A stretch of DNA of 64,000 nucleotides from a virus (lineage: Duplodnaviria; Caudoviricetes): the IMG/VR virus record IMGVR_UViG_3300031555_004728, positions 160,001-224,000 of that record; one strand, given 5' to 3'. A program made the position numbers and the translations under genes. Positions 25,911 through 53,726 of the stretch are shown piece after piece (positions within the stretch are counted from its first letter, which is position 1; each line of letters opens with the position of its first letter). The notes beneath the pieces were generated by a model. It saw only the letters and a program-made list of their open reading frames with translations. It made no database searches and was not told where the DNA came from.

Positions 25911-25924
25911 AAAATTAAGATGGG

Positions 25925-25975: not shown

Positions 25976-26010
25976 TTTTATTGTAAAAATATACCATAAA
26001 TAAAATAAAA

Positions 26011-26022
26011 AACATTCTTTTA
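26011..26022 (+). promoter_or_regulatory. Putative late promoter of the tail fibre
   Basis: AACATTCTTTTA (AACA-N6-TA). Confidence 0.55.
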
Positions 26023-26100
26023 ATGTGAAATACTACGGAGTTCTATCCGTATTTTCCTTTATTATTTTCATGAAAATATTAAAACAAGGAGGATTTTGAT

Positions 26101-27528: not shown

Positions 27529-27565
27529 ATATTATATATAAAATACTATTAAGAAGGTGAGGGGA

Positions 27566-27647
27566 GAACCAATTTTGTTAAGTTAAATTTCTCTATCTAT
27601 CGATAATTTCCTTTGATTACAGAAAACTTACTTAACAAAACTGCAAC
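27566..27647 (+). repeat. 82-bp element, copy 5
   Basis: Same arms and length. Confidence 0.97.
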
Positions 27648-27998
27648 CAACAAGAATTGGTAGCATCATTAACTCCACATGAATCATATGGAGCACATAT
27701 GAATCCTACATATGATGCACAACATTCACTTTTTACATTAGGTAGATTTAAAATTGTATCCGGAACTGTAGAAAGTAAGCATTTTCCATATAATAGTAAT
27801 TCTGGTGCGTATGAATATACTTCATATTTTTCATACCCATTTAATGTGATACCTAGAGTTTTGGTTACTGCAGAATATCCTGCAGGATTACCAGAAGTTT
27901 GTGTAGCTTCAGTAACTACTACATATGTAAAACTTTCATGTAGTTCACAATTAAATAGTTTATGGGTAAATTGGTTTGCATTTTCATTTGATGAATAA
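27639..27998 (+). other. Silent tail-fibre tip cassette 5 (H-type-lectin/gp53-like)
   Basis: NCNQQELVASL...FSYPFNVIPRVLVT...VNWFAF. Confidence 0.85.
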
Positions 27999-28034
27999 AA
28001 AAAAGAAGAGGGTTTTTAATCCTCTTCTTTTTTC

Positions 28035-29073: not shown

Positions 29074-29466
29074 ATGAAAACTATTGATAAATTGAAATTA
29101 GCAATTTTCGAAGCTGGTAATAATGGCATTATCGATGAAGGTAAAGTTAAAGAAATGATTACTGTTTGCGAATCTGCTAATATGGAAAATCAGGATGATG
29201 TAAACGCTCTGACTAAGATTACAGAAGAGTTAATTTCAGTTACAGAATCTGTTGAAAATCCAGAAGCTCCTGTTGTTGAAGAACCAGTAGTTCCTGAAGA
29301 GCAACCTGTTCAAGAATCAGTTGCTGAGATTCAGCATAAAGAAGAAACTCCTTCTGTAAATATGACAGAACTTAAACTTGAGATCTTTGAAAGTGAAGCA
29401 AGTGGTCAAATTACTCCAGAAGAAAGAGATCTCTTGCTAAGTATGATGGATGTACATACAGCTTAA
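29074..29466 (+). CDS. Putative internal head protein (paralogous motif family)
   Basis: C-terminal ELKLEIFESEASGQITPEERDLLL; late-type promoter at 29028-29039. Confidence 0.6.
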   Translation: MKTIDKLKLAIFEAGNNGIIDEGKVKEMITVCESANMENQDDVNALTKITEELISVTESVENPEAPVVEEPVVPEEQPVQESVAEIQHKEETPSVNMTELKLEIFESEASGQITPEERDLLLSMMDVHTA

Positions 29467-29467
29467 T

Positions 29468-29503
29468 AAATATGAGATACAGAAAAATCTGTATCTCATA
29501 TTT
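29468..29503. terminator. Bidirectional terminator, identical copy at 33875-33910
   Basis: AAATATGAGATACAGA-AAAA-TCTGTATCTCATATTT. Confidence 0.75.
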
Positions 29504-29506
29504 ATT

Positions 29507-30157
29507 TTATTTTCCTTGATATGCTTTAAGATAAAGACCTGGTTCTCTTACTTTAGTAGATGGGGTATTAAATTTTTTAGATATTTCATGATCTTTTATC
29601 TCTTCACCTCTACTTCTAATAGATTCTATAGGCACATTACTCTTATTTTCTTTACCAATTTCTAACCGTGACTCATTGTCTAAAGGGCTAGAATAATAAT
29701 CTCCTCTTGAATAATTTTCTTTATATTTGTTAAGTTTATTTGATAAATCGTGTTCAAGTTTTTTAATTTGAAGTGTGATTTTTTCTTTAACAGAATCACT
29801 TGCTGTTTTTTGTATTTTTTTTAACGCTTTAATTTTTTCTTCAGTTTCTTCATTTTGTTTTCTTAATTCTTGTAATGCTTTTGTATGTTCTTTTTCATAT
29901 CTAGTTGCTTCCAAAAGAACTATACACTCATCATTATCAATAATACCTTCTGTAAATCTTTCTAGTACTGAAATATGATATTTAGAATTATCTACTGATT
30001 CTAATAATAATATACATTCATCTACTGATATATCACCATTAATTACTGATTCTGTAATTGAATCAATAACTGCTGGTTCAGTTTCAATAACCATATCTTC
30101 AACTGATTCTGTAACACAGTCTAAAATATTGTCTAAAAGTTGTTCAAATTTACTCAT
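29507..30157 (-). CDS. Putative internal head protein
   Basis: Two degenerate copies of the E...G.I..DEC..LLE motif; ES-rich N-terminus. Confidence 0.55.
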   Translation of the reverse strand: MSKFEQLLDNILDCVTESVEDMVIETEPAVIDSITESVINGDISVDECILLLESVDNSKYHISVLERFTEGIIDNDECIVLLEATRYEKEHTKALQELRKQNEETEEKIKALKKIQKTASDSVKEKITLQIKKLEHDLSNKLNKYKENYSRGDYYSSPLDNESRLEIGKENKSNVPIESIRSRGEEIKDHEISKKFNTPSTKVREPGLYLKAYQGK

Positions 30158-30242: not shown

Positions 30243-31070
30243 CTAATACCAATTGCCTGCTTCAACGCCAATATATTGACTTTCGCTACCATAATAAAAA
30301 TAAACCGTTGTACTTAACGGTGCAACTTCATTAAATGTAATTTGTACAGCATTATATGCATATCCTATAGCTTTTATAGTACCACCAGAATCTATACCAT
30401 TATATTTTAAACCACATGAAGTAGTTACACCATTAATGACAGTTCTAGATGTTCCAGCCATATTATTTATAATCCATGGATCATGAATATAAATACTTCC
30501 ACCAGAATCAGATCCACAAACATATTGTCCATATGGTAATTTGTAATAATATCTTTGACATAACCTCAGTTCTTCATCATATCTTCTAGGAATATTTCCT
30601 GTAAACTTAGTACCCTTTTCAAGTTTTATAAAGTCTATATTATAACTATCAGTCATTAATACTGAAAATTCATCATAATTTTCTATTGGACCTCCTGTGT
30701 GTCTTGTATATGATAACTTTAAATTTGGTGATATAATAAATGAATCACTTACAGATCCATTTATTATATATGATCTTATAACTCCATCAAAACTTATAGT
30801 TATAGTATACTGAGCATTATCATCTATTGTATACTCTAAGATTTGTTTTAGTTCAACTGATTTAACAGTTCCTATATTAATAGATATACCTGAATTATCA
30901 TTTAATTTTGATACTATTGGCATAGTATCATTTGGATTATTTATAGTAATATATTTAATCCACATATCTGCTGTATATCCACTCGCTCCAGTATTAAAAC
31001 TAGTACCTCTTTGCCATACTTGAAAATTTCCATTAATTAAAATATTAGGGTTAACAAATTGGTTGCAGTT
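30243..31070 (-). other. Silent tail-fibre tip cassette 6 (large, carbohydrate-binding-like)
   Basis: NCNQFVNPNILINGNFQVWQRG...KLEKG...EELRLCQRYY, a pattern typical of phage fibre modules; the annotated Met is internal. Confidence 0.88.
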
Positions 31071-31143
31071 TTGTTAAGTAAGTTTTCTGTAATCTAAGGA
31101 AAATCTCGATAACTAGAGAAAGTTAACTTAACAAAATTGGTTC
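31062..31143 (-). repeat. 82-bp element, copy 6
   Basis: Reverse-complement copy; interior identical to copy 8. Confidence 0.96.
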
Positions 31144-33346: not shown

Positions 33347-33428
33347 GAACCAATTTTGTTAAGTTAACTTTCTCTAGTTATCGATAATTTACGAAGAATA
33401 CAGAAATCTTACTTAACAAAACTGCAAC
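33347..33428 (+). repeat. 82-bp element, copy 7
   Basis: Same arms and length. Confidence 0.96.
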
Positions 33429-33824
33429 CAAATAACATGCCAGATATATCATTATTCTGTTGATGGTAATAATCCTTTAGGTATACCTTGGGGTTGTTTT
33501 ATATATAAATATTCCAATGGATTAATGATGATATCTGCTTGGCAAACAGTTAGTGATATTCCTGTATCATCATCATGGGGATCTTTATATTCATCTGCCA
33601 GAATTGGTGGGATTGCATACGGATATCAATCTAATACATGGGTACCAGTAACATTTAAAAATGTATTTTTTGAAATTGCATGGTCAAACCACCCGAACCT
33701 ATTAACATTGGGAGGTGGAGGATTTTATCATGAACAAACACAAGATATATATCTTGTATCTGCTGTAAATATTCCAGATGTTGATGCTACTATATATTAT
33801 CATACAGTAGGTATATGGAAATAA
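33420..33824 (+). other. Silent tail-fibre tip cassette 7
   Basis: NCNQITCQ...YKYSNGLM...WGSLY...VGIWK*; fibre C-terminal pattern. Confidence 0.85.
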
Positions 33825-33911
33825 AAATATTGAAAATATCACTAATAAATTAATTAAGATTTATAGACTAAAATAAATATGAGATACAGAAAAATCTGTA
33901 TCTCATATTTC

Positions 33912-34595
33912 TTAAGCTGTATGAATATCTACCATATTTAATAAGATATTTCTCTCTTCTGTTGTAATATCTCCTTGATAACATGACTCATAAACTAAAA
34001 GTTTAATCTCATCAAGTTTATCATCTGTAGATTCTTTGGTCATTCTAGTTCTTCTACTCATTGAAATATCAGCATCATCGATTTTATCAATCATTTTATC
34101 GATTTTAACTTTTGCTGATTTTGGAAGGTTCTTTGTATTAACATTTGATAATGATTTTTTGATTTGGATAAGTTTATCATGAACATCACTATCAGCGTTT
34201 GTTCTAAAATATACAAGAACTGGTGTTAATAAAGTATCTAATGTCATTATTACACCAAATGTTAATGCTCCTGGTATAGATACACCCGTTAATCCAATAA
34301 ATCCAATAAATTCAATAGTAATTCTAATTAAGAATCCTACATCAGTTTTACGCAACTTATCAGGTTCTTTTTCAAGAATATCAGATGCTTTAATAATGTC
34401 ATCATAATTCTTATCTACAAATTCAATAACTTCTTTATCATCTGAGTATTGAGATGGTTTATTATCACGGATATTCTTAATAATTTTCTTAAATTTACCA
34501 AGAGGATTTATAATACTTTCAGTAAAAAACTCTTCTTCTATCTTATTAAAGCTGTATTCCATGACCTCTTCAAATAATACATTATATGCACTCAT
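33912..34595 (-). CDS. Putative internal head protein (paralogous motif family)
   Basis: C-terminal EIKLLVYESCYQGDITTEERNILLNMVDIHTA. Confidence 0.6.
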   Translation of the reverse strand: MSAYNVLFEEVMEYSFNKIEEEFFTESIINPLGKFKKIIKNIRDNKPSQYSDDKEVIEFVDKNYDDIIKASDILEKEPDKLRKTDVGFLIRITIEFIGFIGLTGVSIPGALTFGVIMTLDTLLTPVLVYFRTNADSDVHDKLIQIKKSLSNVNTKNLPKSAKVKIDKMIDKIDDADISMSRRTRMTKESTDDKLDEIKLLVYESCYQGDITTEERNILLNMVDIHTA

Positions 34596-34755: not shown

Positions 34756-35094
34756 TTAAAATCCTATTACTAAATAACTGATTTTATATGTACTATCTTC
34801 TGAAAGTGATCCATTAAAATTCCATCCTTTAATATTAACCTTAGTTCTCTCTATAGTACCAACACCCACATTTATAATTGTATCAATATACTCATTTCCT
34901 GCATTTTTTGTAACACTAACAAATGGCTCTTGTGTATAACTAACAGGATATGTCAACTGTCCTTGAAGTATCCACTCTGATATTGGGACAATATCAATAT
35001 ATCCAAAACATATTTTAAGACCATTTTCAAATATTAAATATCCTGATGTTCCATCTTCAAGTTGTTTTCTATATTCTATAAGTCGATTGCAGTT
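34756..35094 (-). other. Silent tail-fibre tip cassette 8 (gp53-like)
   Basis: NCNRLIEY...SGYLIFENGLKICFG...TYPVSY...YLVIGF*; core variant AACTGCAAT is synonymous. Confidence 0.87.
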
Positions 35095-35167
35095 TTGTTA
35101 AGTAAGTTTTCTGTAATCTAAGGAAAATCTCGATAACTAGAGAAAGTTAACTTAACAAAATTGGTTC
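35086..35167 (-). repeat. 82-bp element, copy 8
   Basis: Reverse-complement copy. Confidence 0.96.
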
Positions 35168-40216: not shown

Positions 40217-40602
40217 TATATAATCACTCCTATCTGTTTAAGACTTATAAATGTAATCGCCCATACTACAAATGATAATAAAAGTAATTTTTTATATCTT
40301 CGTTTAAAAGATATTTCTTGTATTATAAATACTCTATGAACTAAAAATACAATGCACCATAATATTAAATGCATAATTGTAAAATATGTTGATACAGAAG
40401 GTTTTATATATACAGCTTGTACAATTGATATCATAAAGCAACTTGATAATGTATATTTGATACTATATAAATTAAGTTTTAATCTAGTACCTTTATTAAT
40501 AGCAGTTTCAACATTAATTATTGATGCTAAATCCATCAGTATACTAATAAATATAAATCCACAAAGCCATAAAATACCTTCCATAAAATTTAATCTTACC
40601 AT
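40216..40602 (-). CDS. Membrane protein
   Basis: About four hydrophobic segments; GGAGG RBS. Confidence 0.65.
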   Translation of the reverse strand: MVRLNFMEGILWLCGFIFISILMDLASIINVETAINKGTRLKLNLYSIKYTLSSCFMISIVQAVYIKPSVSTYFTIMHLILWCIVFLVHRVFIIQEISFKRRYKKLLLLSFVVWAITFISLKQIGVII

Positions 40603-40843
40603 TTTTGACCTCCTTTACCATTTGTAGGTGGGAATAATTGTGATATAATAACAACTAACATCACAATCAAAAACCATGTTGAAGCTGTATTATTCATCAC
40701 ATTTATCTCCTTCATTTTCATCAGTATTTTTAGAATTGATTAATTCTAATTCGTATCTAATATCACCTAATTTATCATTTATTATATATAATATGAATAC
40801 TATTATTCCTAAACAAATATAAATTATTTCTTCATGTTCCATA

Positions 40844-42052
40844 TTAATCATTCATCTCCATTTCTATAAGTTTCATGACATCTGTATGTAAATACATATC
40901 TATTTGCTCCCCTCCTAATTCCTTTCCATTTAAATCTTTGATATATGTATTTAAAACTTCCCCAACAGATAGATTCTTATTGAGTATATAGTCATACTTA
41001 AATAATATATCTTTTAAAGCCGATTCGTCAGTTTGCTTTTTCTTTGATATATATCCATTTACAAAGTCACAATGAACTCCATTTAAATTTCTGAAATTCT
41101 CTCTCATAGTACTTATAAAAAATTCTGGATTTGGGTAATCTTCTGGTATATTGAAAATAAGTCTTGTACTTTTATTATCACTATTTTCAATTAAGTTTCT
41201 TAATGTCTTTAAATGATTTTCAAGCATTTCTTCTGATGAAAAAATTTCATGGTCGTATCCAAATATATGAGTTTTAAATTTTGGAGCATCATAATTCTCG
41301 TGAAATTCCGATGAATAATGAGGTTCATCTTCTAAATCACAAATTATTTCATAATATCCCTTTGGTTCTTCTTCACCATGTATCCAACGAGTAAAACTTC
41401 CAACATAATGGACATAATCTTGAATTACTGTATGTACATGGTAATGACCGAAATAAACTTCACCTTTACAGCATTTCTTAAAATCTGCTGTAGTAAATAC
41501 AGCTGGTTTAAGTCTACTATCTTTATCTTTTTTATTTTCTCTTTTAATCATAGTCATTGCTTCAGCAATTACACCATGACCAAATATATAATCATATTTT
41601 TTCTTTTGACTGAAGAACTCTTTATAGTATTCATCTTTATCTTTAATATACTCTTCAGGAAGATACAAAACTTGCATTCCTGGAAGTAGTTCTTCTTCGC
41701 AAACGGTTTTAATAATTTTAAAATCTAAACCTTTCATATTTTCATAAATAGAAAATATATGGTACTGATCTACTTCATGTGATTCTGTACCATAAACAAT
41801 TCGTATACATTTTGTATATTGGGTTAATTTATTCATAAGCCATAATCCTGCATCACTAGCACGATTGTTTAAGAATATTTTCTTATCCCAATAATCACCA
41901 TCTATAATTATAAAGTCAAAATAATATCTAGTGTCCAAAAGATTAAATAGATTAGTTCTAAGCTCTTGTTTCATTTCATCAACATCTGTTGCTCCGAAAT
42001 GTATGTCCGCTAGAACTAATCCTCTATATTTTTTACTCATAACACTATCCAT
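40844..42052 (-). CDS. SbcD/Mre11-like metallophosphoesterase nuclease
   Basis: ADIHFG, GDYWD, GTESHE, GHG, GHYH, YVGS motifs. Confidence 0.85.
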   Translation of the reverse strand: MDSVMSKKYRGLVLADIHFGATDVDEMKQELRTNLFNLLDTRYYFDFIIIDGDYWDKKIFLNNRASDAGLWLMNKLTQYTKCIRIVYGTESHEVDQYHIFSIYENMKGLDFKIIKTVCEEELLPGMQVLYLPEEYIKDKDEYYKEFFSQKKKYDYIFGHGVIAEAMTMIKRENKKDKDSRLKPAVFTTADFKKCCKGEVYFGHYHVHTVIQDYVHYVGSFTRWIHGEEEPKGYYEIICDLEDEPHYSSEFHENYDAPKFKTHIFGYDHEIFSSEEMLENHLKTLRNLIENSDNKSTRLIFNIPEDYPNPEFFISTMRENFRNLNGVHCDFVNGYISKKKQTDESALKDILFKYDYILNKNLSVGEVLNTYIKDLNGKELGGEQIDMYLHTDVMKLIEMEMND

Positions 42053-42142
42053 CCTTTGCTATTTATTCTTAATTTTTTGTAAATAGAAAAATATTATTTT
42101 ACTGAAGATGTCATGAATTTAATAAAGAAAGGATGGTAATAA

Positions 42143-43168
42143 ATGTTTGATGTACATGAAAGAGACAGACAAGAAATTGACACGATTTTGGATAACCTGA
42201 AAAAGCAGGGCAAAATTGATTTAGAACTTAAAGGTGATAATGAAAGACAACTTTTCCAAGACCAATTTCACCAGCAAGCAATTCAGATGGGATTATTACA
42301 ACAACCCAGTTCTGAATTTGCAAGTTCGTATAATGTACTTAGAGAATTTTTACTTAGTAAGAAATTTGAAAATCTTTCTAGTAATACTTTAAAAATTTAC
42401 TATAATACGATTTTCAATTTTATTGAACAAATGGATGAAGGTAAGACTCTATTTGATGTCAAGACTGCTGATATCAGAGCTTATTTAATGCACTATCAAG
42501 ATGAACATAAGTGTTCTAGTCTAACTATAGATAATATGAGAAGGTGTTTCTCATCATTTTATAATTGGCTAGAAGATGAGGATTATGCTATTAAAAACCC
42601 GGTTAAAAAGATAAAGAAAATAAAAAGTGATAAAGTTATAAAGAAACCATTTAGTCATGAAGAATTGGAAATGATTAAAGATGCTTGTAGAAACTATAGG
42701 GAATTATCACTTATAGAGTTTCTGTATTCTACAGGTATTCGTGTTAGTGAACTTTGTGGACTAGATATTTCAGATTTAGATTTTAACCAAAGAGAAGGTA
42801 TTGTATTTGGTAAAGGTAGCAAAGAACGTGTTATATATTTTGATGTTAGAAGCAAAGTCCATTTATTACGATATTTAAATACAAGAGTCGATAATAATCC
42901 GGCATTATTTGTTACTAAGAAATATCCATTTAATAGATTAGAAAAAAGCGGTGTCGAATCTATTATAAGAGAAATAGGTAAACGTGCTGGAGTGGAAAAA
43001 TGTCATCCACATAGATTTAGAAGAACATTTGCTACTAACCTTCTCGATAGAGGGGTTCCTATCGAGCAAGTACAGATTTTATTAGGTCATAATAAAATAG
43101 ATACTACGTTATTATATGCTACAGTAAATACACAATCAGTTAAATTAAATCATGACAGATTCGTTTAA
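42143..43168 (+). CDS. XerD-like tyrosine recombinase
   Basis: TGIRVSEL (R), GKGSKER (K), HRFRR (HxxR), LLGH, TLLY (Y); SAM-like N-domain. Confidence 0.93.
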   Translation: MFDVHERDRQEIDTILDNLKKQGKIDLELKGDNERQLFQDQFHQQAIQMGLLQQPSSEFASSYNVLREFLLSKKFENLSSNTLKIYYNTIFNFIEQMDEGKTLFDVKTADIRAYLMHYQDEHKCSSLTIDNMRRCFSSFYNWLEDEDYAIKNPVKKIKKIKSDKVIKKPFSHEELEMIKDACRNYRELSLIEFLYSTGIRVSELCGLDISDLDFNQREGIVFGKGSKERVIYFDVRSKVHLLRYLNTRVDNNPALFVTKKYPFNRLEKSGVESIIREIGKRAGVEKCHPHRFRRTFATNLLDRGVPIEQVQILLGHNKIDTTLLYATVNTQSVKLNHDRFV

Positions 43169-43179
43169 TTAGAAAATAA

Positions 43180-43215
43180 AAATGACTAGATAGAAAATCT
43201 ATCTAGTCATTTATT
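43180..43215. terminator. Bidirectional terminator
   Basis: AAATGACTAGATAGA/TCTATCTAGTCATTT. Confidence 0.7.
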
Positions 43216-43224
43216 TTTTTAATA

Positions 43225-44130
43225 TTAGAATGTGATATCAATTGCTTTAACAGCTTCGATTGTTTCAGCATTTCTAATTTCAACTTCAATTTCCTGTTGT
43301 TTAGATACTAATGGTCTAACAACTGCTTCAATGTCTGCAGCAAGAGCCTGAAGTTCATCTAATGTCCAGTCATATGTACATACTTCTCCAGTAGCATTCC
43401 ATGATGGAGTATATTCTGGATTTAATGATGCCATCATAATAACTGCCATAAGTTGTGATTGTTTTTCTTGTGTCATACTGTATTCAGCTTCAACACCAGC
43501 ATGTGCTGTAGATTTAACAGTATTTGTTGCAAGATAATTTGCAAGATTAACTTTGCTTGTTGCAATTCTGTAATCTTTAAGACCTTCAAGATCAAGTTCA
43601 TCTTCATCAAGAAGATTAAGTTGTGTCTTGATAATGTCAATATCACTTGCATTACTTGTAACAGTTTCATTATATTTAGCCATTTGAGCTAATGATTCTT
43701 TAAGTTCAGTATTAGCTGTGCTCAAAGTTTCAACTTTACCAGCAAGTGTCTTATTTTCTCCTTGAAGTGTATTAACAAGATCTTCAAGAGTTGCAATCTG
43801 CTCTGGGATTGTTGTAGAGAGGCTCATCTTAGCTTCTAATACTTCAACTTCTTCACCATCAATTTCAACAAATGCTGTTGAGATTTGTTCTAATACAGTA
43901 TAATCATTGATTGTACGAACTTCAACTTCATTTTCATATACTGTAAGAACTGCAGTCTTTAATTCATCCTGACAGATAGCTTTTACTGCTGCAATTGTAT
44001 CAATTTCTTTGCCAAATGTAAAGCAAATAACTTTTTTACTAACGCCTTTTCTTTTAAGAATTGATTCAAAAGGAAGGGCTGCAAGAGGATATGCAGTAGA
44101 GTCATTTGTGACTAATTTATACATACTCAT
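43225..44130 (-). CDS. Coiled-coil protein with DUF4376-like C-terminus (possible fibre chaperone)
   Basis: Central heptads; C-terminal WT.DEL.AL...IRNAETIEAVKAIDITF; late-type promoter at 44190-44201. Confidence 0.55.
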   Translation of the reverse strand: MSMYKLVTNDSTAYPLAALPFESILKRKGVSKKVICFTFGKEIDTIAAVKAICQDELKTAVLTVYENEVEVRTINDYTVLEQISTAFVEIDGEEVEVLEAKMSLSTTIPEQIATLEDLVNTLQGENKTLAGKVETLSTANTELKESLAQMAKYNETVTSNASDIDIIKTQLNLLDEDELDLEGLKDYRIATSKVNLANYLATNTVKSTAHAGVEAEYSMTQEKQSQLMAVIMMASLNPEYTPSWNATGEVCTYDWTLDELQALAADIEAVVRPLVSKQQEIEVEIRNAETIEAVKAIDITF

Positions 44131-44297
44131 AGTAAATTATACCTCACTTTCAAAATTTTAAATAATTAATTTTTAATTACTTTTTCATTTATTGAAATGT
44201 TTCATTTGATGAGAATAGATTAATAATTTAAAAATATATTATATTTAAGTATAGACTATATAATAATACTATTTCTAAAAAAGAAGGGAGTATACAA

Positions 44298-45107
44298 ATG
44301 AGTATTAAAGAAGCAAAAAAGAAAGCAATTAAGAGACAAAAAAGAGAAGAACTTGGATATAAGTTCAGATGTGTTTTAGCAACACTTATTATGATTTTAT
44401 TGGTATCTGGTACATGTGTTGGTGGAGTTGCAATCGTTATTGCATCTGCTAATTCCGCACTTGAAGATATTAGTAAATCAATCGTCTCAAACGAAAATGA
44501 AACTAAAAGTGTAAAAGAAAAAGAAGAGAAAGAAATCATTGAAACTGTAGCAGCTATTGATACTATCTCAGATAAGACAAGTGAGGTTGAAACTGCAGTA
44601 GACGTCAATGAAGAAATTCATCAGGTACATTATGAAAAAATGAGCAAAGAAGAAATTGTATCTGAAGGATTATCACAAGATGAAAATGTAGCACAAAGAA
44701 TGACTATCGACCATAATACAATGTCTATACTTATTCGAGTAGTCGAGGCTGAAGTTACAGGTTCGTCATTCAGATACAAAGGAAATGATGTAAGTTATGA
44801 TGAATTATTAAAATCTAAAATTAGAGTTGCTCAGGTATTCATGAATCGAGTCGAGGATCAAGGTGAATTTAAAAATATAACATCATTATATCAATCACTT
44901 ACATATCCAGGAGCTACATCTACATTTGGTGATGGAAGATATTATAAAGTAGAAATTACTGACATTACTAGAGAAGCTGTTAGATTAGCTTTAAGAGCAG
45001 ATACACCTGATTATACAGATGGTGCATTGTTCTTTAATAGTGGCACATCTTGCAAATATGGTTCATACCTATTTACAGATGCTGTCGGACATTCATTCTA
45101 TAAATAA
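44298..45107 (+). CDS. SleB-like cell-wall hydrolase with N-terminal membrane anchor
   Basis: RVVEAE, VAQVFMNRV, DYTDGALFF, GHSFYK. Confidence 0.8.
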   Translation: MSIKEAKKKAIKRQKREELGYKFRCVLATLIMILLVSGTCVGGVAIVIASANSALEDISKSIVSNENETKSVKEKEEKEIIETVAAIDTISDKTSEVETAVDVNEEIHQVHYEKMSKEEIVSEGLSQDENVAQRMTIDHNTMSILIRVVEAEVTGSSFRYKGNDVSYDELLKSKIRVAQVFMNRVEDQGEFKNITSLYQSLTYPGATSTFGDGRYYKVEITDITREAVRLALRADTPDYTDGALFFNSGTSCKYGSYLFTDAVGHSFYK

Positions 45108-45149
45108 AATAATCCCTAGTAGCATTTAGCTACTAGGGATATTTATTTT

Positions 45150-47417
45150 TTACTCAAAAAATGAAGCCATCATTTCATCAGCAAAATCATCAAAGCTTTT
45201 TTCTTCAACTAAAGATTCTGGAATGTGACTCATTTCCTTAAAAGTATCTTCAATTACTGATTCCATCTTTGCATCTGATTCATCTGAATCTGCTTTATCA
45301 AGATTATCAACCCATTTCTTAAGTGAATTCATATAATCAGATTTCCACTTTTCAAATGCTTCATTAGGTGTTCCATCTTTTTTATCATATTCAAATGCTC
45401 TTACATAAATAGATGTCTTATCAGCATTCTTGTTTTCATACCATCCTTCTGGAATTGATTTCAAATTATACTTCTTATCAAATGTTAGTCTTGCTGTTGT
45501 ATATAATTTACCATGATATACACCATCTCTAAAGTTATCTTCTTTAATTCTTGTCTTATTATGACCAGAACAAGAGTATTTAACTTTATAACCAAGTCTA
45601 TTAAGAAGTTCTACTACATATTTGATATCGTCATCAATTTCATGTGTTGCTTCAGAGAATAGTTCAGAATCAAAATCAACCTGATTTAATACAGTTTCAC
45701 ATATTTTTTCTTCTTCAAACTGATTTTCAAGACATTCTAAAAATACACCAACTTTTGTTTCAAAGTTTTCTGCACTTTCTTCAAAGATTGAATTTATCAT
45801 TTCCATACATGAAATACTTACGTTTTTCATAGGTGCTTCTGATAAAACAGATTCAATAAATTTACCTACATTTGATTCTGTTATGAAAATTCCTTTATTT
45901 AAAGAATCTACTTTTTCAACGATATATTGCTTTCTTTCACTAACAAAATCATCAGATGATTCTTTAACAAGAATTTCTGATAATGTGTATTTGTTGTTAT
46001 TGAAACCTGATATAATGTCTTCCGCTGATTCTTTAACATCTTTTTCTTTTTCAACATCTTTAAAGTTTTCGATTGCATGATCTAAGCGATTTAATGCTTC
46101 ATCATAATCTTCTTTTTTAGAGTCTTTATCTTCTCTTATTTTCTTTAAACGTTTTGCAGCATCTTTAACATCAGATGCATCACATTTAAGTCCGAAATCA
46201 ATTTTTTCATCTACAGTAGATTCTTTTACAACTTCTGCAGATTTCTCATAGAAGATAATAACACCATTATCAACTGATGTGAATTCTGCTGTCATAGTAA
46301 TTCCTTTTGTAGACTTTTCATATTTGATTACAATACCATTTTCTTTTATAGGTTTAAACCCACAACCTACAATAGCATTTACAACTTCAGATGGTTCTAA
46401 TTCTTGATTAATGAAATTAAATGTATAACGATTCTTTTTAACGTTAATCAATGATTTAAATGATTGGGAATCATTTTCAGGATTTGATAATCTTAGATGT
46501 TTTTTAAGTTTATCAAATAACTTTTTAACTTCAGAATCAAAGATAATATTATTTTTGTATACAACACCTTCAAGAGCGATAAAAGCACCTGATGAGCGTA
46601 ATACATCTCCATAATATTCACTTACTGATTCTGCAGCAACCATTTTAAATTCTTCGTTATTTTCTTCCTCTTCAGAATTAATTTCTGCATCAGTAGATGC
46701 TACCATATCTTTAACAGTTCCAGCACTTTGATGAACTAATAATTGACCATCTACTGGAATAACAGGCATCATAGTTTCAACACCTTCTTGTGCTGTAAAT
46801 CTTGTAGATATGAAGTCTTTAAGAAGATACCCATCTTCTAATGAAATAGCACCAGATAAGATTTGACCATCTATAACTCTCTCATATAAAAATCCAGATT
46901 CTACTCTGTAATCAGGATATGATTCATACATACTTCTTTCGAACTCTGTAAAACCATCTTCTCCATTTGATTCTTTATATAATTTGAGATTATCCATTTT
47001 TCTATCAGCAATTTCTGTTGCTAACTTACCAACCACATTATCATTTGACCATGTTCTTTCAAATGTATATGAGTTGTAAATTGACTCTCCTGTTAATCCG
47101 TTTATGATTTCTTTATAATCTAAAACACTTTCACCAACAAATGGATTGATGTTTGGTACATTAGCTTCAATAACTGATTCAAGAGTCGCATCGTGTAAGG
47201 TATCTGCAGCCTCCAATGCAAATTCTAAAAGTGATTCTTCGCTTGTATTTATAATATTAAGCATAGCACATGCACTAGATTCTGTAAGATATCCTAAGGA
47301 ATAATTTTCAGTGATTTGATTTAATAATCTAAAGTCTTCCAATACTTTAGCTTCCATGTATCTACTACTAAATACTCTTTCTTTTGAGCTAGGTATTGGT
47401 CGTACATCAAAACTCAT
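45150..47417 (-). CDS. Large acidic putative head/virion protein
   Basis: 755 aa with many xES motifs; C-terminal LNRLGYKVKYSCSGH domain; late-type promoter at 47444-47455. Confidence 0.55.
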   Translation of the reverse strand: MSFDVRPIPSSKERVFSSRYMEAKVLEDFRLLNQITENYSLGYLTESSACAMLNIINTSEESLLEFALEAADTLHDATLESVIEANVPNINPFVGESVLDYKEIINGLTGESIYNSYTFERTWSNDNVVGKLATEIADRKMDNLKLYKESNGEDGFTEFERSMYESYPDYRVESGFLYERVIDGQILSGAISLEDGYLLKDFISTRFTAQEGVETMMPVIPVDGQLLVHQSAGTVKDMVASTDAEINSEEEENNEEFKMVAAESVSEYYGDVLRSSGAFIALEGVVYKNNIIFDSEVKKLFDKLKKHLRLSNPENDSQSFKSLINVKKNRYTFNFINQELEPSEVVNAIVGCGFKPIKENGIVIKYEKSTKGITMTAEFTSVDNGVIIFYEKSAEVVKESTVDEKIDFGLKCDASDVKDAAKRLKKIREDKDSKKEDYDEALNRLDHAIENFKDVEKEKDVKESAEDIISGFNNNKYTLSEILVKESSDDFVSERKQYIVEKVDSLNKGIFITESNVGKFIESVLSEAPMKNVSISCMEMINSIFEESAENFETKVGVFLECLENQFEEEKICETVLNQVDFDSELFSEATHEIDDDIKYVVELLNRLGYKVKYSCSGHNKTRIKEDNFRDGVYHGKLYTTARLTFDKKYNLKSIPEGWYENKNADKTSIYVRAFEYDKKDGTPNEAFEKWKSDYMNSLKKWVDNLDKADSDESDAKMESVIEDTFKEMSHIPESLVEEKSFDDFADEMMASFFE

Positions 47418-49067: not shown

Positions 49068-49149
49068 GAACCAATTTTGTTAAGTTAAATTTCTCTAGTT
49101 ATCGATAATTTACGAAGATTACAGAAATCTTACTTAACAAAACTGCAAC
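49068..49149 (+). repeat. 82-bp element, copy 9
   Basis: Same arms and length. Confidence 0.97.
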
Positions 49150-49542
49150 CAACAAGAAATTTCTGAAACTTTAAACTATAGAAATGCTTATATAGAAGTA
49201 TTAAAAAATGATGATCAGACAAATACTACAATAACACCTGGTACAGATACTACTTTAAATATGTTTACAATACCTAGTACTGGCATATATTTTATAGTAG
49301 CATCCATAACTGCTACTAGTAAAGAAGATAATAAATATTTAATATTTCATTTGATTAAAACAACTTCAACAGGAACATATTGGACACCTATAGAACTTTG
49401 TGATAGTGGTTCTTATACAAGACTTTCAGGTTCTTGTATGGTTCCACTTGATAAAGGTACTATTTTAACACTTAAAGCAAGTACAAATAATTCAAGTAAT
49501 TTAAGTGTTAGTTATCGTTTTAGTATAGTAAAATTAGTATAA
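49141..49542 (+). other. Silent tail-fibre tip cassette 9 (C1q/BclA-like)
   Basis: NCNQQEISE...FTIPSTGIYFI...LDKGTILTL...FSIVKLV*. Confidence 0.85.
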
Positions 49543-50143: not shown

Positions 50144-52897
50144 TTACATAGATTTTCTATCAGCTATTTCAGCCATTTTTGCAGCATTGAGTCTAGTATC
50201 GCCATGAACTCTTGAATATGATAAATATCCATTCATTCGTTCTATGGAAAGTATATGTTTAGAACCACATTTTGGACATACATCCATAGCAACACCTTCT
50301 TTACCACAATCTTCACAATAACAAAGAGTAAAATTAACACCTTCATACAATCCCATTTTCATAGCACGCCTTACGAAAGCTCTAATTGCATCTTTGTTAT
50401 AGTTAATTCCATATTTTACATATTGAATTCTTCCACCAGCACTTAAATTCCAGAATCTATATTCTTTATCTTGTTTTTCAATTCCATCCATTTCTTCACT
50501 TACATGACAATGGAATGAATTACTTACATATTCTCTATCAGAAACATTTTCCACAATACCATATTTTTGTCTAAATTGAGTAACTTGTGTTCCACATAAA
50601 CTTTCTGCTGGAGTTCCATAAATCGCATAAAGAATACCATCTTCTTTTTTAAACTCATTAATTTTATCGTTAATGTGTTGCATAACTTGTAATGGAAATT
50701 CTCCATCTTCACGAATAGATTTTCCATTATGTAATTGATTAAGTTCATTAAGCGCAGTAAATCCATAACTTGCTGTAGCGTATTTTAATAAAGGTTTAAT
50801 TTTTTCAGATGGATCTAAGAAACCATTATGAAAGCCACCTTGACAAAATGCTACAGGATTAGTACTTGCTTTAATATTAGATAAATATTCATATGTCATA
50901 ATATGAACTTCTCTAATTAATTGGAGATATTCATCTAAAACTTCATAGAAGTCTCTGTCTTCTTGTTTAGCTTTAGCATAAATCATTGGTAAGTGAAGTG
51001 ATACTACACCAATATTAAATCTTCCAGTGAAGAATGGTTTATCATTCTCATCTGCAGGATACATTCCACCACGTTCATAATATGGTGAAAGAAAAGCTCT
51101 ACAGTTATGAGAATCAAGTTCATTAACCATAAATCTGTCTGATTCTGTAGTGAAGTCATAACTGAATTTTCTTTGATGGAAAATTTCAATTTTTTCTACT
51201 TCAAATTCAGTATACATTTTGTAATCTGTAATACCAACTATTTTATCTCCTACTTGTATATTTTGTGCTTCAGTTCTTCCTTTTCCAATTATTGGAAGTG
51301 GATGATCAAAAGTACACATAAGTGATCTTTCTCTCGAACTGAAGTATTTTGTATCTTTAAAAGTGATTTTAATCCATTCATCAGTAACATTTCTGATTAC
51401 TCTATGAACTTTAACAAATTCATTTTTATTGATATCATATGTATAAAGATTAATAGGATCTGCATAAAAATCCCATTCTCTTCCTTCTTGTAATTTTACA
51501 CCAAACTTGGTAGGAATATTTCCAAGTTCGATTTCTTCCCAAAGATCTTCAAATGTATAATTAATATATTTATTATCATTATCATCTTCAGGTTTATTTT
51601 CTTTAATTCTGATTCTAGCAGAACCATCAACACAGCCCATAGGTGCAATAATTTCACCGTATTTATGCCACATTTCTGCTACAGTTGTATCTCCATCAAG
51701 AGATAAATAATCAGGATACATAGCTTTTGATGAGCAATCTAATGCTTCTTCAAAAAGCCATTCCAATTCTTTTCCCGGTCCATGTAAATCCTCAGTATAT
51801 GTAAATACTAATTTAGGGAAAAGAACTGATTTCTTTTTACCTGGTGCTCCTTGCCCTTCTTTTCTAACTTTAAGACAAATAGATGCTGCTAAACTAGCAA
51901 ACTTATCTGTTGAAACACCGATTGTGAATGTAGTAAATGGATAATCTCCTCTACTACTTGCTACAGTATTAAGTTTAATTTCAAGACCTTGGAAACCTTG
52001 TTCCATATCTCTTATAACTTTTGCCATTGCTTCATCTTCTGCTTCTTTAAATAATAGTGCTTTCATTTCATCTGTAATTTCAACACCTATAGTACTTAGA
52101 GCAGATAATAATGAATTAAGTTTTGATTCATAAATACCACTTTTATATTTATCAAAACTTAATTTAGCATATTTGGATACTAACTCATCAATACGTGGAA
52201 CTGTAAAACCACCGTATTGCTGACTTGCTGCGGATAAAATAATATCACCGATAACGTCAAATGTCGTATCGAGTGATTTTGGTTCATTATACCAGAGATT
52301 ACCCATCTCAAATCCACCAGTTAAAACAGTTTTAACATCAAAAAGACAACAGTTGATACCGTCTCTTCGAGAACTCATATCATGAATGTAAATATATCCA
52401 TCTCTACATGCCTGTAACATCTTTTTATTTAACTGGAATTTTTGGTATAATTCTTTGTTAAGTTGTCCAAAAATAAGACTACGTTTAGTAGATACTAACG
52501 TAGAATCTGAATTTGCATTTTCTTTATCACCGATATACATAATAGCTTGTGCTTTTTTATAGATAGAATCTATCATTGCGACAAATGAGGTTTTGTAATC
52601 ACGATAGTCTCTATAACTTTTTGCTACTTCAGGTGCAATTTCTTCTAACACTTTTTCTACTATATTATGCATCATTGGTACGGTTATATATCCATTACCA
52701 TCTTCTTCTTTTACCCAGTATTCTTTATTATGAATACTTTCATTTGCAAATTCTTTAATACGTCTAATTTCTTCATCAGAGAATTTATAAAGAACTCTGA
52801 ATGCAGATTTTTTAACAGCATTAATGATCTTATCTACATTAAAAGGCTGTATCGTATTATCCTTTTTAATAATATAAATCATATCATAAACCTCCAA
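50144..52897 (-). CDS. nrdD: Anaerobic (class III) ribonucleotide reductase with ATP cone and intein
   Basis: IYIHD, NCCL, QYGG, PMG[C..]CR, YGTPAESLC, SNSFH, CEDCG...CPKCG, RMNGYL glycyl-radical motif. Confidence 0.96.
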   Translation of the reverse strand: MEVYDMIYIIKKDNTIQPFNVDKIINAVKKSAFRVLYKFSDEEIRRIKEFANESIHNKEYWVKEEDGNGYITVPMMHNIVEKVLEEIAPEVAKSYRDYRDYKTSFVAMIDSIYKKAQAIMYIGDKENANSDSTLVSTKRSLIFGQLNKELYQKFQLNKKMLQACRDGYIYIHDMSSRRDGINCCLFDVKTVLTGGFEMGNLWYNEPKSLDTTFDVIGDIILSAASQQYGGFTVPRIDELVSKYAKLSFDKYKSGIYESKLNSLLSALSTIGVEITDEMKALLFKEAEDEAMAKVIRDMEQGFQGLEIKLNTVASSRGDYPFTTFTIGVSTDKFASLAASICLKVRKEGQGAPGKKKSVLFPKLVFTYTEDLHGPGKELEWLFEEALDCSSKAMYPDYLSLDGDTTVAEMWHKYGEIIAPMGCVDGSARIRIKENKPEDDNDNKYINYTFEDLWEEIELGNIPTKFGVKLQEGREWDFYADPINLYTYDINKNEFVKVHRVIRNVTDEWIKITFKDTKYFSSRERSLMCTFDHPLPIIGKGRTEAQNIQVGDKIVGITDYKMYTEFEVEKIEIFHQRKFSYDFTTESDRFMVNELDSHNCRAFLSPYYERGGMYPADENDKPFFTGRFNIGVVSLHLPMIYAKAKQEDRDFYEVLDEYLQLIREVHIMTYEYLSNIKASTNPVAFCQGGFHNGFLDPSEKIKPLLKYATASYGFTALNELNQLHNGKSIREDGEFPLQVMQHINDKINEFKKEDGILYAIYGTPAESLCGTQVTQFRQKYGIVENVSDREYVSNSFHCHVSEEMDGIEKQDKEYRFWNLSAGGRIQYVKYGINYNKDAIRAFVRRAMKMGLYEGVNFTLCYCEDCGKEGVAMDVCPKCGSKHILSIERMNGYLSYSRVHGDTRLNAAKMAEIADRKSM
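51104..51634 (-). mobile_element. Mini-intein (177 aa) in NrdD
   Basis: MG|CVDG...TFDHP...YDFT...SHN|CRAFL; no LAGLIDADG motifs seen. Confidence 0.92.
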
Positions 52898-52956: not shown

Positions 52957-53038
52957 GAACCAATTTTGTTAAGTTAAATTTCTCTATTTCTCGATAATTT
53001 ACGAAGAATACAGAAAACTTACTTAACAAAACTGCAAC
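52957..53038 (+). repeat. 82-bp element, copy 10
   Basis: Same arms and length. Confidence 0.96.
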
Positions 53039-53329
53039 CAGCAAGATCTTGAAACTTATATATCATCATCCACAATGCCATATGTATTTATAACATGTAG
53101 AGAAACTGATTCTACTGAAGTTGTAGATATCTTAAATTGTATACTTGATGAATTACCTAATGATATTTTATTTGGTATTAGGTTAGAAGGTCATAATATT
53201 CCAAGACAGTTTGGATCAGGGTATTTATATGATAATAGTAATTATGGTTCACTAATATTATCTACATGGGATGCACCTGCATTTTTTAGAATTTATAATA
53301 AAGAAATAACAAGAATAGTTTTAACCTAG
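53030..53329 (+). other. Silent tail-fibre tip cassette 10
   Basis: NCNQQDLETYISSSTMPYVF...RIVLT* in frame with the core. Confidence 0.8.
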
Positions 53330-53356: not shown

Positions 53357-53438
53357 GAACCAATTTTGTTAAGTTAACTTTCTCTATCTTTCGATAATTT
53401 CCTTTGATTACAGAAATCTTACTTAACAAAACTGCAAC
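53357..53438 (+). repeat. 82-bp element, copy 11
   Basis: Same arms and length. Confidence 0.96.
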
Positions 53439-53726
53439 CAGCAAGAAATTATAAATTGTATAGAATCCAATCATATATGGCTTTCCGATAATACTGGTGA
53501 AGATATTACAACATCTGTATATAATTTAGCAACATTTTTCCCAATTAATACATCATTCTGTTGCATACTTCAAACACCATCTGGTATTTGGAATGGTACA
53601 GGTTTTGTATATAAAGGAGCTGAAAATCAATTAAATGGGACATTCATATTATCAAGTGTTGCAGGTATATGTACTGTAAGAATATTAAATGGATATGCAC
53701 TAGGACAAATGTTATATACATTTTAA
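53430..53726 (+). other. Silent tail-fibre tip cassette 11 (no usable start)
   Basis: NCNQQEIINCIESNHIWLSD...GQMLYTF*; 98 sense codons open, missed by the ORF track. Confidence 0.82.

Follow-up and report, generated by a model that had tools for sequence, protein, structure and literature searches.

Hairpin-borne silent cassettes and an unlinked Xer-like recombinase suggest shuffling of tail-fibre tips across a jumbo phage genome

A handful of compact systems are known in which receptor-binding proteins are switched by programmed means, including the Mu and P1 inversions, the Rin shufflon, and diversity-generating retroelements. In the R64 shufflon (Rci) and the Gin/Cin/Min inversion systems, programmed rearrangement exchanges the C-terminal part of an adhesin or a tail fibre, and Gin, Cin, and Min are serine invertases. 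Antigenic variation at pilE/pilS and vlsE involves silent, start-less partial genes and one expression site, while integrons comprise a tyrosine recombinase (IntI), attC hairpins, and promoterless cassettes served by one expression point. In the PeSL cassettes of T4-type phages, repeated stem-loop motifs reportedly border variable small genes and are located at rearrangement points, and PsrA is said to be the recombinase of an hsdS epigenetic inverton. To our knowledge, the recombinases of known shufflons and invertons are all encoded beside their own sites.

Work on the Rin shufflon of Bifidobacterium prophages describes an XerD-like recombinase and 11-bp sites by which the C-termini of receptor-binding proteins are swapped, with variants that differ between prophage and virion genomes (PMC6109161). 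For the pneumococcal tvr locus (TvrR), the published description gives excision and reintegration through circles, with two kinds of direct repeat (PMC6265443). The locus reported here lies in a stretch of 64,000 nucleotides (the window) of a complete jumbo phage genome of 275,512 bp (G000). It resembles Rin in several respects: the XerD-like tyrosine recombinase is encoded by the phage and is without an arm-binding domain, the receptor-binding protein has a constant N-terminal part and C-terminal segments that are very dissimilar, and each variable segment is preceded by an asymmetric 11-bp repeat, which in Rin is the crossover site (PMC6109161).

The ORF at 42143–43168 (Table 1) encodes an intact Xer-like tyrosine recombinase. 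Residues 171–331 correspond to Pfam Phage_integrase (PF00589, E 4.8e-37) and residues 67–149 to Phage_int_SAM_4, a SAM-like core-binding domain (56.2 bits), and the protein also matches the phrog_1 integrase family. Residues 1–65 had no family match and are conserved only in a second complete genome, G001. The intact R-K-HxxR-H-Y set reported in the initial annotation was confirmed by alignment to XerA (4a8e) and XerD (1a0p), comprising R200, K224 or K227, H290-x-x-R293, H316, and Y325. The protein scored 238.8 bits against NCBIfam XerA_Arch (NF040815; cut-off, 220), which is to be read as a score only, the model being archaea-built and its name also covering ‘integron integrase’. Scores were below the cut-offs of the XerC/XerD equivalogs (TIGR02224, 180.9 versus 335.15 bits; TIGR02225, 170.9 versus 329.6 bits) and of the integron integrases (TIGR02249, 91.9 versus 265 bits; NF011946, 52.4 versus 435 bits), and the match to IntI4 (2a3v) was confined to residues 267–328. 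No Pfam family of the arm-binding kind matched. The recombinase is the sole PF00589 match in the G000 genome, where no serine recombinase (PF00239), Y1 transposase, or reverse transcriptase was found and a TnpB zinc-ribbon match was sub-threshold only.

The gene is convergent with a DUF4376-like coiled-coil gene, as described previously; the 301-aa product of this neighbour barely passes the DUF4376 cut-off (27.7 versus 25 bits) and matches phrog_1348, ‘tail fiber protein’. The position next to a possible fibre chaperone, pointed out in the initial annotation, found no support as a meaningful one. The DUF4376 gene is kept in G001, G006, and G008 and is thus not specific to the cassette system, and in G006 just 100 bp separate its orthologue from that of the 402-aa gene, and no recombinase is found between them, so that the recombinase gene is an insertion into an older gene pair. 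Its position beside the DUF4376 gene looks incidental. In line with the initial annotation, no repressor-type domain was found in the four neighbouring ORFs scanned and no tRNA was found in the window by ARAGORN, and the nearest site, previously placed about 6 kb away, lies 5,900 bp downstream, with the nearest on the upstream side at 6,976 bp. The only strong inverted pair in a scan of 40500–45300 for dif-like sequences was the terminator at 43173–43219.

Table 1. Coordinates of the features discussed, numbered from the first letter of the window
Feature	Position	Strand	Remark
Element 13980–14060 + start-less cassette 14050–14367	13980–14367	+	
Element 14404–14484 + start-less cassette	14404–14836	+	
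Element 18056–18136 + start-less cassette	17743–18136	-	
Element 25505–25585 + start-less cassette	25505–25910	+	
5' arm only, without loop or 3' stem	25922–25947	+	Left edge of head module
Head module, ~1.3 kb	25926–27235	+	5' arm, leader with ribosome-binding site, constant fibre part through core
Tail-fibre-like gene, 475 aa	26101–27528	+	Constant part, then ...IDELNCN..., then current tip; expressed copy
11-bp core AAACTGCAACC	27225–27235	+	Constant/tip junction of fibre gene; common to all element 3' ends
Tip now fused to head	27236–27528	+	Not joined to head in runs X7, X11, X12
Element 27566–27646 + start-less cassette	27566–27998	+	Unit missing in runs X7, X11
Element 31063–31143 + 276-codon cassette	30243–31143	-	phrog_4492 ‘tail fiber protein’, E 2e-18
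Element 33347–33427 + start-less cassette	33347–33824	+	
Element 35087–35167 + start-less cassette	34756–35167	-	Nearest upstream of recombinase gene
Conserved gene, 402 aa, no family match	40844–42052	-	Adjoins DUF4376 orthologue in G006
Tyrosine recombinase ORF	42143–43168	+	341 aa, Xer-like two-domain build + 65-aa N-terminal extension
Bidirectional terminator hairpin	43173–43219		Between recombinase and DUF4376 genes
DUF4376 / tail-fibre-like coiled-coil gene	43225–44130	-	301 aa, convergent with recombinase gene
Element 49068–49148 + start-less cassette	49068–49542	+	Nearest downstream of recombinase gene
Element 52957–53037 + start-less cassette	52957–53329	+	
Element 53357–53437 + start-less cassette	53357–53726	+	
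Element 60357–60437 + 218-codon cassette	59711–60437	-	Weak tail-fibre PHROG matches

Genome-wide, G000 contains 35 full copies of an 81-nt repeat, each a conserved hairpin that leads into a start-less ORF in one fixed frame, and the 35 cassettes are scattered across ~190 kb on both strands. In all 35 full elements, the fixed frame is open from just behind the TAA of the 3' arm and runs for 90–276 codons; the other two frames shut within 6–33 codons. An 11-bp core is present at the 3' end of every one of these elements and also inside the fibre gene. The layout is the same in G001, with a diverged element and core: this genome has 17 full elements, and 16 of 20 pattern matches lead into frames of 94–457 codons. 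Within this lineage, gene order breaks at the elements, 19 of the 21 element-bearing intervals being synteny breakpoints.

Several other readings of the element were rejected. A role as a promoter or 5' leader of small genes, as for PeSL, is disfavoured as the principal reading by the downstream frames, all 35 of which lack a start codon and begin to be open within the element; sigma-70-type scans gave counts no higher than chance (15 versus 15.9 expected, and 11 versus 15.3). Regarding a known RNA family or a tRNA-like gene, Rfam matched only two group I introns, both at other places in the window, and ARAGORN returned nothing. The attC-like reading of GTTAAGT / ACTTAAC was dropped, as the triplets, by eye, mirror the arrangement in attC and the protein scores below the cut-offs of the IntI models. 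Viral contigs scanned with the palindromic pattern yielded 53 stretches, and five unrelated contigs inspected from it (L006, L026, L027, L031, and L044) proved to be chance matches.

The head module, which includes the constant part of the fibre gene, is a block found elsewhere in other strains. Two features speak against the reaction proposed below: its two junctions are asymmetric, the 5' arm being retained whole and the 3' arm just in its outermost 11 nt, and at the 11-bp core a canonical core site, with inverted arms on either side of a 6–8-bp spacer, is not evident. A single-sequence search yielded no relatives of the fibre, and an alignment-based search yielded three, all from already-known lineages. 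The related genome G006 carries two full-length fibre paralogues instead of the element family.

Natural variants place DNA-level swaps at exactly the arm, core, and element sequences. In the lineage of G001, a sister phage, G010 corresponds to G001 positions 127887–137342 joined to 153861–177427 (both at 100% identity), the overlap being the 11-bp core, and its head is fused to another cassette. G002 corresponds to G001 positions 57923–135698, followed by 51 nt and then by 137332–146082; relative to G001, with the flanks at 100% identity, the 1,633-bp head is precisely missing and a full hairpin is restored. The restored hairpin and G001 element 153792 agree at 80 of 80 positions, one of them a variant that is present in only 1 of the 17 full G001 elements. 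In the G000 lineage, a strain of this phage, seen in a stretch (L149) of contig JAEIGA010000180.1, carries the head inverted, ~43 kb from its place in G000 and in frame with the cassette of element 142752. Further variants were read from Logan contigs of sequencing runs, leaving out the X4 joints with ~21 letters on one side. The head contigs of runs X7 and X11 stop matching at 27235 and continue into other sequence, while the tip contigs of runs X7, X11, and X12 begin at 27225. Every rearrangement junction detected among near-identical strains falls within an element or the core, and no strain variant was seen at any other repeat. Trans-splicing and ribosome bypassing, either of which would act at the RNA level, were set aside because the alternative fusions are already present in DNA contigs; visual inspection showed no upstream mini-ORF in a consistent frame, and no RNA data set stood among the sequencing runs listed.

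Some details of these variants weaken the case. G010 may be a chimera produced by the assembly from two isomers instead of a real deletion form, and the reciprocal-swap signature in G002 depends on one nucleotide. One X11 contig runs from the head into the start of an element instead of a fused tip, an arrangement unpredicted by the model described below.

The recombinase and the element system occur together in both complete genomes, G000 and G001, and the fragments G002 and G003 also carry the gene and the elements. Among the five relatives searched, a PF00589 match was present in G001 and absent from G006, G007, G008, and G009, and the element family was absent from G006, G008, and G009 (G007 was used for the recombinase search only). 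Co-occurrence had been put forward as a check in the initial annotation; the pattern obtained agrees with a link and constitutes a single phylogenetic contrast, that is, one evolutionary event. In total, 28 ORFs of G000, the recombinase among them, have a match in G001 but none in G006, G008, or G009. Breakpoints numbered 36 in 165 orthologue pairs between G000 and G001 and 33 in 111 pairs between G008 and G009, which have no tyrosine recombinase; genome shuffling is as common in the pair without the enzyme, and rearrangement alone therefore does not require it. Three of the four best matches to the recombinase in the ‘phages’ collection (MT835621, MT839915, and MT838471; 48–50% identity) are located in type I R-M loci adjoining hsdS genes. 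These recombinases sit among hsdM/hsdS/hsdR genes, where phase-variable shuffling is presumed, and MT835621 has 21–31-nt inverted repeats at the hsdS gene ends. Relatives at 35–44% identity (L012–L019) showed no element-like repeats.

The recombinase is probably a domain-shuffling enzyme that swaps the tips of the phage tail fibre, with the head moving among ~35 stored cassettes. That it serves the cassette system is suggested by the use of the sites as DNA recombination junctions in natural variants, by the lack of any other site-specific recombinase, Y1 transposase, or reverse transcriptase among the genes found, by the joint occurrence of gene and system and their absence from relatives, and by the location of the closest relatives in presumed hsdS-shuffling loci. 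The earlier proposal that the enzyme acts on 82-bp sites holds insofar as the sites, which measure 81 nt, are recombination junctions; from the evidence above, we infer that the recombinase is the catalyst of the swaps. According to the model, the genome would store 35 alternative fibre tips as silent start-less cassettes, each behind an 81-nt hairpin element, and one 1.3-kb head (leader and ~375 constant codons), docked between a 5' arm and a core, would express one tip. The recombinase would make conservative crossovers between two 5' arms or between two cores, and two such crossovers would put the head in place of another element's hairpin loop and that loop in place of the head. This two-step pathway would proceed by excision and reintegration for same-orientation sites and by two inversions for opposite-orientation sites, leaving the head fused to a new tip and the remaining genome order unchanged, while single crossovers would give rise to deletions, inversions, and translocations bounded by elements. 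A change of tip would presumably alter the host range.

We lean, if slightly, towards a broader interpretation as a genome-wide shufflon, in which an unlinked recombinase would move the promoter-bearing constant half of the fibre gene among 17–35 hairpin docking sites over ~190 kb, each leading to a different silent receptor-binding tip. Dozens of host specificities might then be tried within a population, single crossovers would reshuffle the gene order, and the hairpin would perhaps be a folded site, like attC or the attachment site of the CTX phage.

It is unlikely that the recombinase is instead a housekeeping enzyme, for instance for dimer or multimer resolution of a circular or plasmid-like form, with the swaps made by phage or host homologous recombination (over the 18–25-bp arm and the 11-bp core), by template switching at the hairpins, or by an unrecognised enzyme. 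Such a role would suit its best family and structure matches, which are Xer proteins (XerA_Arch above cut-off, XerA 4a8e, and XerD 1a0p), as well as a gene that adjoins no element and a phage clade that rearranges heavily even without a recombinase. However, the closest relatives are presumed hsdS shufflers and not chromosomal Xer proteins, the XerC and XerD models score far under their cut-offs (181 versus 335 and 171 versus 330 bits), and no dif-like inverted pair other than the terminator lies near the gene. The 11-bp core, very short for homologous recombination, is reused precisely in at least four independent variants, and the record is classed in IMG/VR as one with direct terminal repeats. 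The complete relatives G006, G008, and G009 are without any tyrosine recombinase; a housekeeping role of this kind is therefore no general need of this phage group, and the genome-dimer resolution named as a real alternative in the initial annotation, although possible, is weakened accordingly.

A different target in the same genome is a doubtful explanation: the recombinase would drive another inversion or excision, and its co-occurrence with the cassettes would be a coincidence of shared ancestry. The 27 further ORFs likewise specific to the G000/G001 pair are compatible with this, and other site pairs could be overlooked in the inverted-repeat list of the window, which is dominated by the element family; one more inverted pair was noted there, with arms at 29410–29509 and 33869–33968. 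These arms are, however, palindromic terminator-like sequences, and the junctions between near-identical strains fall in elements or the core without exception. Even less probable, to the point of being very improbable, is that the enzyme is an integrase inserting the phage into the host chromosome during lysogeny, although the Pfam and PHROG families are named ‘integrase’ and some relatives at 33–38% identity carry integrase annotations in temperate Clostridia phages. The protein showed no arm-binding domain, neither a tRNA nor a repressor lies nearby within the scans above, and the related complete genomes are without the gene. A pattern-based search of one genome each of 185,579 prokaryote species, in which absence weighs little, gave a best match of 44% identity, and the nearest cultured relatives by DNA polymerase are AR9/PBS1-type jumbo phages, which are not known to integrate.

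If the shuffling model is correct, the phage possesses a much larger version of programmed receptor-binding switching, with up to 35 stored tips, and is unusual in that the constant half of the gene is mobile, the docking sites are conserved hairpins, and the gene for the enzyme is unlinked to them. The model would account for the ability of an uncultured gut jumbo phage to follow many hosts or receptor variants, and also for the breaks in gene order at the elements. The recombinase and its sites would constitute a compact pair for protein-domain exchange, and the three near-identical forms of the G001 lineage make the reaction pathway testable.

Among the systems introduced above, Rci and Gin/Cin/Min share with the proposed system the programmed exchange of adhesin or tail-fibre C-termini, but they are compact, adjoin the enzyme gene, and are without hairpin docking sites. 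The pilE/pilS, vlsE, and PeSL systems differ in that they need longer stretches of homology, used by homologous recombination or gene conversion, whereas here a fixed core of 11 bp forms the right-hand junction and one variant resembles a reciprocal exchange. Integrons are similar in their imperfect hairpin sites of 60–130 nt, their cassettes without expression signals of their own, and their tyrosine recombinase. In contrast to integrons, the hairpin here is 5' and not 3' of the cassette, the cassettes are start-less and fused in frame, the GTT/AAC triplets, by eye, occupy the sides of the stem opposite to those in attC, the cassettes are dispersed and not in one array, and the integron-integrase score is 91.9 versus 265 bits.

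The circle pathway outlined for tvr fits the G001, G010, and G002 forms (PMC6265443), and tyrosine recombinases swap specificity domains within coding sequences both in tvr and in the hsdS ‘epigenetic invertons’, according to the two reports (PMC6265443, PMC7672463); type I R-M loci of the latter kind are also where the closest recombinase relatives (48–50% identity) are located. As described there, these systems concern restriction-specificity genes of bacteria or phage-labelled contigs, each at one compact locus, whereas here a virion protein would be shuffled across a whole jumbo-phage genome. Likewise, Rin is described as ~5 segments switched by inversion at one compact locus beside the rin gene (PMC6109161), as against 35 cassettes (G000) or 17 elements (G001) over ~190 kb on both strands here, with the site within an 81-nt conserved hairpin, a constant head that moves, and an unlinked recombinase gene. 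At 5.9 and 7.0 kb from the nearest elements, this gene is placed unlike those of known shufflon and inverton recombinases, which counts against the proposed function. What the phage has in common with shufflons and invertons are short repeats at the border of constant and variable parts and natural isomers that are joined in those repeats.

The hairpin elements of this phage recombine at defined sequences in nature, and the repeat system stores silent tail-fibre tips at hairpin docking sites, together with a head module (the leader and constant part of the fibre gene) that is mobile. The window (positions 160001-224000) belongs to a virus record of 275,512 bases with 28.5% G+C (G000), classed in IMG/VR as having direct terminal repeats and 100% completeness. 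Its B-family DNA polymerase showed 26-28% identity to those of Bacillus phages AR9 and PBS1 and Staphylococcus jumbo phages, and the runs containing the locus were metagenomes of animal faeces, mouse gut, and bovine gut. The genome was compared with those of a sister phage (G001; 278,849 bp) and more distant relatives, including G006 (polymerase 75% identical), G008, and G009, all 100% complete, and G007, 85% complete. Other features of the window included a complete PPK1 polyphosphate kinase gene in a jumbo phage, without a homologue in G001, and two group I introns, parts of which constitute the window's 86-nt and 76-nt direct repeats. The Pfam match of the anaerobic ribonucleotide reductase NrdD was split into two stretches and its G001 orthologue aligned across only 418 aa; an insertion (intein or intron) may therefore be present.

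Coordinates of the features in the window and in the sister phage G001
Feature	Sequence	Position	Strand	Remarks
Giant ORF	window	1-8583	-	G000 159608-168583; 2,991 aa; Peptidase_C39-like domain near residue 2250-2400; 50% identity to G001 orthologue
Conserved ORFs	window	14878-15297, 15638-16534, 16824-17663		introns in gaps between, or overlapping ends of, these ORFs
Group I intron	window	15331-15608	-	Rfam RF00028, 81.5 bits
Group I intron	window	16560-16867	-	Rfam RF00028, 79.8 bits
Element	window	18056-18136		adjoins PPK1 gene
PPK1 gene	window	18262-20304	+	all four PPK domains
Head left end	window	25947-25975		3'-arm-like remnant, then second 5'-arm-like sequence
Fibre gene	window	26101-27528		475 aa
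11-bp core	window	27225-27235		within fibre gene
Element-plus-cassette unit	window	27529-28012		missing in runs X7 and X11
42-nt palindrome	window	29465-29506, 33872-33913		terminator-like; copies 98% identical; centre of 100-nt inverted pair, 4.4 kb apart
Recombinase gene	window	42143-43168	+	341 aa
DUF4376 gene	window	43225-44130	-	convergent with recombinase gene
NrdD gene	window	50144-52897	-	917 aa
5' arm	G001	135681		
Head left end	G001	135699-135730		as in window
11-bp core	G001	137332-137342		within fibre gene of 626 aa

The recombinase matched Pfam Phage_integrase (E 4.8e-37) and PHROG phrog_1 (integrase), and Pfam also placed a SAM-like core-binding domain in it. Among NCBIfam models, it passed that of XerA (238.8 bits; cut-off 220) and scored far under the cut-offs of the XerC, XerD, XerS, integron-integrase, and invertase models. 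The closest solved structures were XerA 4a8e (E 1e-32) and XerD 1a0p, and alignments to both identified a full catalytic set (R200, K224 or K227, H290, R293, H316, and Y325). A search for an arm-binding domain detected none, and residues 1-65 had no matches, with conservation limited to the sister phage. PF00589 had a single match across the genome, in which no serine recombinase, Y1 transposase, or reverse transcriptase was found; the only trace of this kind was a sub-threshold TnpB zinc-ribbon match, and the enzyme is the sole recognisable site-specific recombinase encoded. The convergent neighbour, separated by a bidirectional terminator, scored marginally over the DUF4376 cut-off and matched a tail-fibre PHROG. 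On these domain, family, catalytic-residue, and neighbour results, the initial annotation was therefore correct in describing an intact tyrosine recombinase convergent with a DUF4376-like gene. In G006, the DUF4376 orthologue and that of a 402-aa gene face the same way across 100 bp that contain no recombinase; the recombinase gene is therefore an opposite-strand insertion into an older conserved pair. Its adjacency to this fibre-like gene, a possible fibre chaperone in the initial annotation, carries no weight.

Searching G000 for the 5' core with up to 3 mismatches gave 37 matches, one of them unrelated; the others corresponded to 35 full 81-nt elements and one 5'-arm-only copy, spread from 29.5 to 220.4 kb on both strands. 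Full elements were clear of any reliable ORF call in 34 of 35 cases and form an imperfect hairpin whose 11-bp outer stem is separated from the inner stem by an internal loop; folding of four copies gave z-scores from -2.6 to -5.1. The sister phage carried its own diverged version with the hairpin kept, and across the two families (12 sequences) the outer stem showed a single compensatory change and a shift from G-C to G-U at two pairs. Behind all 35 full elements, one fixed frame opened directly past the 3'-arm TAA and stayed open for 90-276 codons, beginning QNCNQQE and containing no start codon, whereas the remaining two frames were shut within 6-33 codons. Such frames (94-457 codons, starting LNSN or LNSK) followed 16 of 20 pattern hits in G001; the other four were two incomplete elements, one unrelated sequence, and one element with a 1-nt insertion that the pattern did not fit. 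Among seven window cassettes scanned, one matched a tail-fibre PHROG (E 2e-18), one did so weakly, and five had no known match, and no similarity was detectable between the G000 and G001 cassette sets. A G-run preceded nearly every element. Self-BLAST found no element family of the G000 type in G006, G008, or G009, each of which had its own dispersed repeats: a unit containing AATGATATATCA in G006, nine copies of ~230 nt ending in a ribosome-binding site and ATGAAAAA in G008, and seven copies of ~50 nt that include a C or G run in G009. These may be lineage-specific promoters or leaders.

The fibre gene, the expression site of the system, reads ...NQGYLLQNQIDELNCNLNEF... and contains the 11 bases with which every element finishes, followed by ~97 residues, about as many as a cassette encodes. 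An isolated 5' arm precedes its start codon by 155 nt; the head module (leader and ~375 constant codons) therefore occupies the place between arm and core where an element's loop would stand, and the layout in G001 is the same. The succession of arm, 3'-arm-like remnant, and arm at the head's left end was conserved in both phages. The head module presumably carries its own promoter; a promoter scan was uninformative. In G006, two complete tandem fibre paralogues (L101 7506-9170 and 9212-11092), which shared a constant part up to an ALSANQGY motif and differed beyond it, stood in place of one head plus cassettes and thus meet the same need with 'two genes'.

Contigs from other samples captured alternative arrangements. 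A 33-kb contig (G010) joined G001 127887-137342 to 153861-177427, each 100% identical and overlapping by exactly the 11-bp core. In it, the constant fibre part continued in frame into the cassette at 153792, which is silent in G001. An 86.6-kb contig from a third sample (G002) consisted of G001 57923-135698 (99.995%), 51 nt, and 137332-146082 (100%); the 1,633-bp head was missing, with a complete hairpin in its stead, and was found nowhere else in G002 or in the fragment G003. This hairpin equalled G001 element 153792 at 80 of 80 positions, including a C variant known from one of 17 full G001 elements; the reciprocal-swap signature hangs on that single nucleotide. The three forms fit one pathway, in which a core-by-core crossover would excise the intervening 16.5 kb as a circle, giving the G010 form, and an arm-by-arm crossover would return it, giving the G002 form, with the net outcome that the head and the partner element's loop would exchange places. 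Alternatively, G010 may be a chimera that the assembler made from two isomers. Since the flanks were 100% identical in this set, switching is fast relative to point mutation.

A metagenome contig from a strain of G000 (L149; 90-97% identical) carried the head in inverted orientation, about 43 kb away from where it stands in G000. On one side the head adjoined the upstream flank of element 143222 and on the other the cassette of element 142752, to which it was fused in frame (...IDELNCNQQEMLRLG...), with otherwise collinear flanks; the contig also had one element where G000 155.06-155.63 kb has two elements and a cassette. Among Logan contigs of DNA runs, X7 record 26 and X11 record 4 spanned 25925/6-27235 and then ran into other sequence, and X7 record 27, X11 record 5, and X12 record 12 started at 27225, preceded by 11-19 other letters. 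In X11 record 4, from a bovine-gut strain, a whole hairpin (letters on 27573-27640) preceded the head (25926-27235), which was followed by 33 letters resembling an element's G-run and 5' arm, with no fused tip. This arrangement may represent an intermediate, or a state in which the head is parked or switched off.

Elements also coincided with changes in gene order. When G000 was compared with G001, synteny broke at 19 of the 21 inter-orthologue intervals with an element, against 17 of 144 without (Fisher p = 4e-13), an association inflated because element intervals are longer and at transcription-unit edges; reciprocally, breakpoints occurred in 14 of 15 element intervals of G001 and 22 of 150 others. 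Rearrangement extended over the whole clade: each pairing of the five complete or near-complete genomes compared (83-165 orthologue pairs) showed 33-49 breakpoints, including that of G008 with G009, both of which lack a tyrosine recombinase.

The initial annotation proposed that the enzyme acts on the '82-bp sites', here the 81-nt elements. That these recombine stands; that the recombinase drives fibre-tip switching is the best-supported explanation and a reasonably probable one, drawing on the enzyme's being the only recognisable one of its kind in the genome and on distribution, kinship, and build. The proposed co-occurrence check was run: PF00589 was present in G001 and absent from G006, G007, G008, and G009 (one of five records searched), and fragments G002 and G003 held both the gene and elements. 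This amounts to one evolutionary contrast, common to 27 other ORFs. The gene lies apart from all sites, the 11-bp core showed no sign of a canonical core site with two arms, and the left and right head junctions were asymmetric. Dimer resolution and integration are the rival roles, and relatives at 33-44% identity included annotated integrases of temperate Clostridia phages and genes adjoining small methylase ORFs or a lysis gene, so the wider clade is functionally mixed. Three observations weaken both roles: the gene is missing from complete relatives, a search turned up no integrated copy above 44% identity, and the closest relatives mostly sit in type I restriction-modification loci.

This kinship speaks for fibre-tip switching by the recombinase. 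Three of the four best phage-collection matches (48-50% identity) lay within such loci. MT835621 (L161; 4026-13057), a human-faeces contig deposited as 'Bacteriophage sp.', held a full type I system in the order hsdM, partial hsdS, inverted hsdS, recombinase, another hsdS, and hsdR. Inverted repeats of 21-31 nt mark the hsdS ends (6083, 6768, and 8958), which suggests phase-variable restriction carried by a contig labelled as phage. In MT839915, hsdM adjoined the recombinase, and in MT838471, hsdS-type ORFs flanked it on both sides; the fourth, MT840076, was a 5-kb contig with the match in two pieces, whose neighbours gave no BLAST match to MT835621 proteins. Compact phage and bacterial shufflons are known in print, where, supplements aside, we found no dispersed hairpin-marked cassettes with a mobile constant part in a jumbo phage. 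According to PMC7672463 and PMC6265443, tyrosine recombinases shuffle specificity domains in type I loci, and the latter describes the tvr system as excision and reintegration guided by two repeat kinds. Rin, according to PMC6109161, swaps the C-termini of receptor-binding proteins at 11-bp sites, and the recombinase described here has the same simple Xer-like architecture reported there for Rin.
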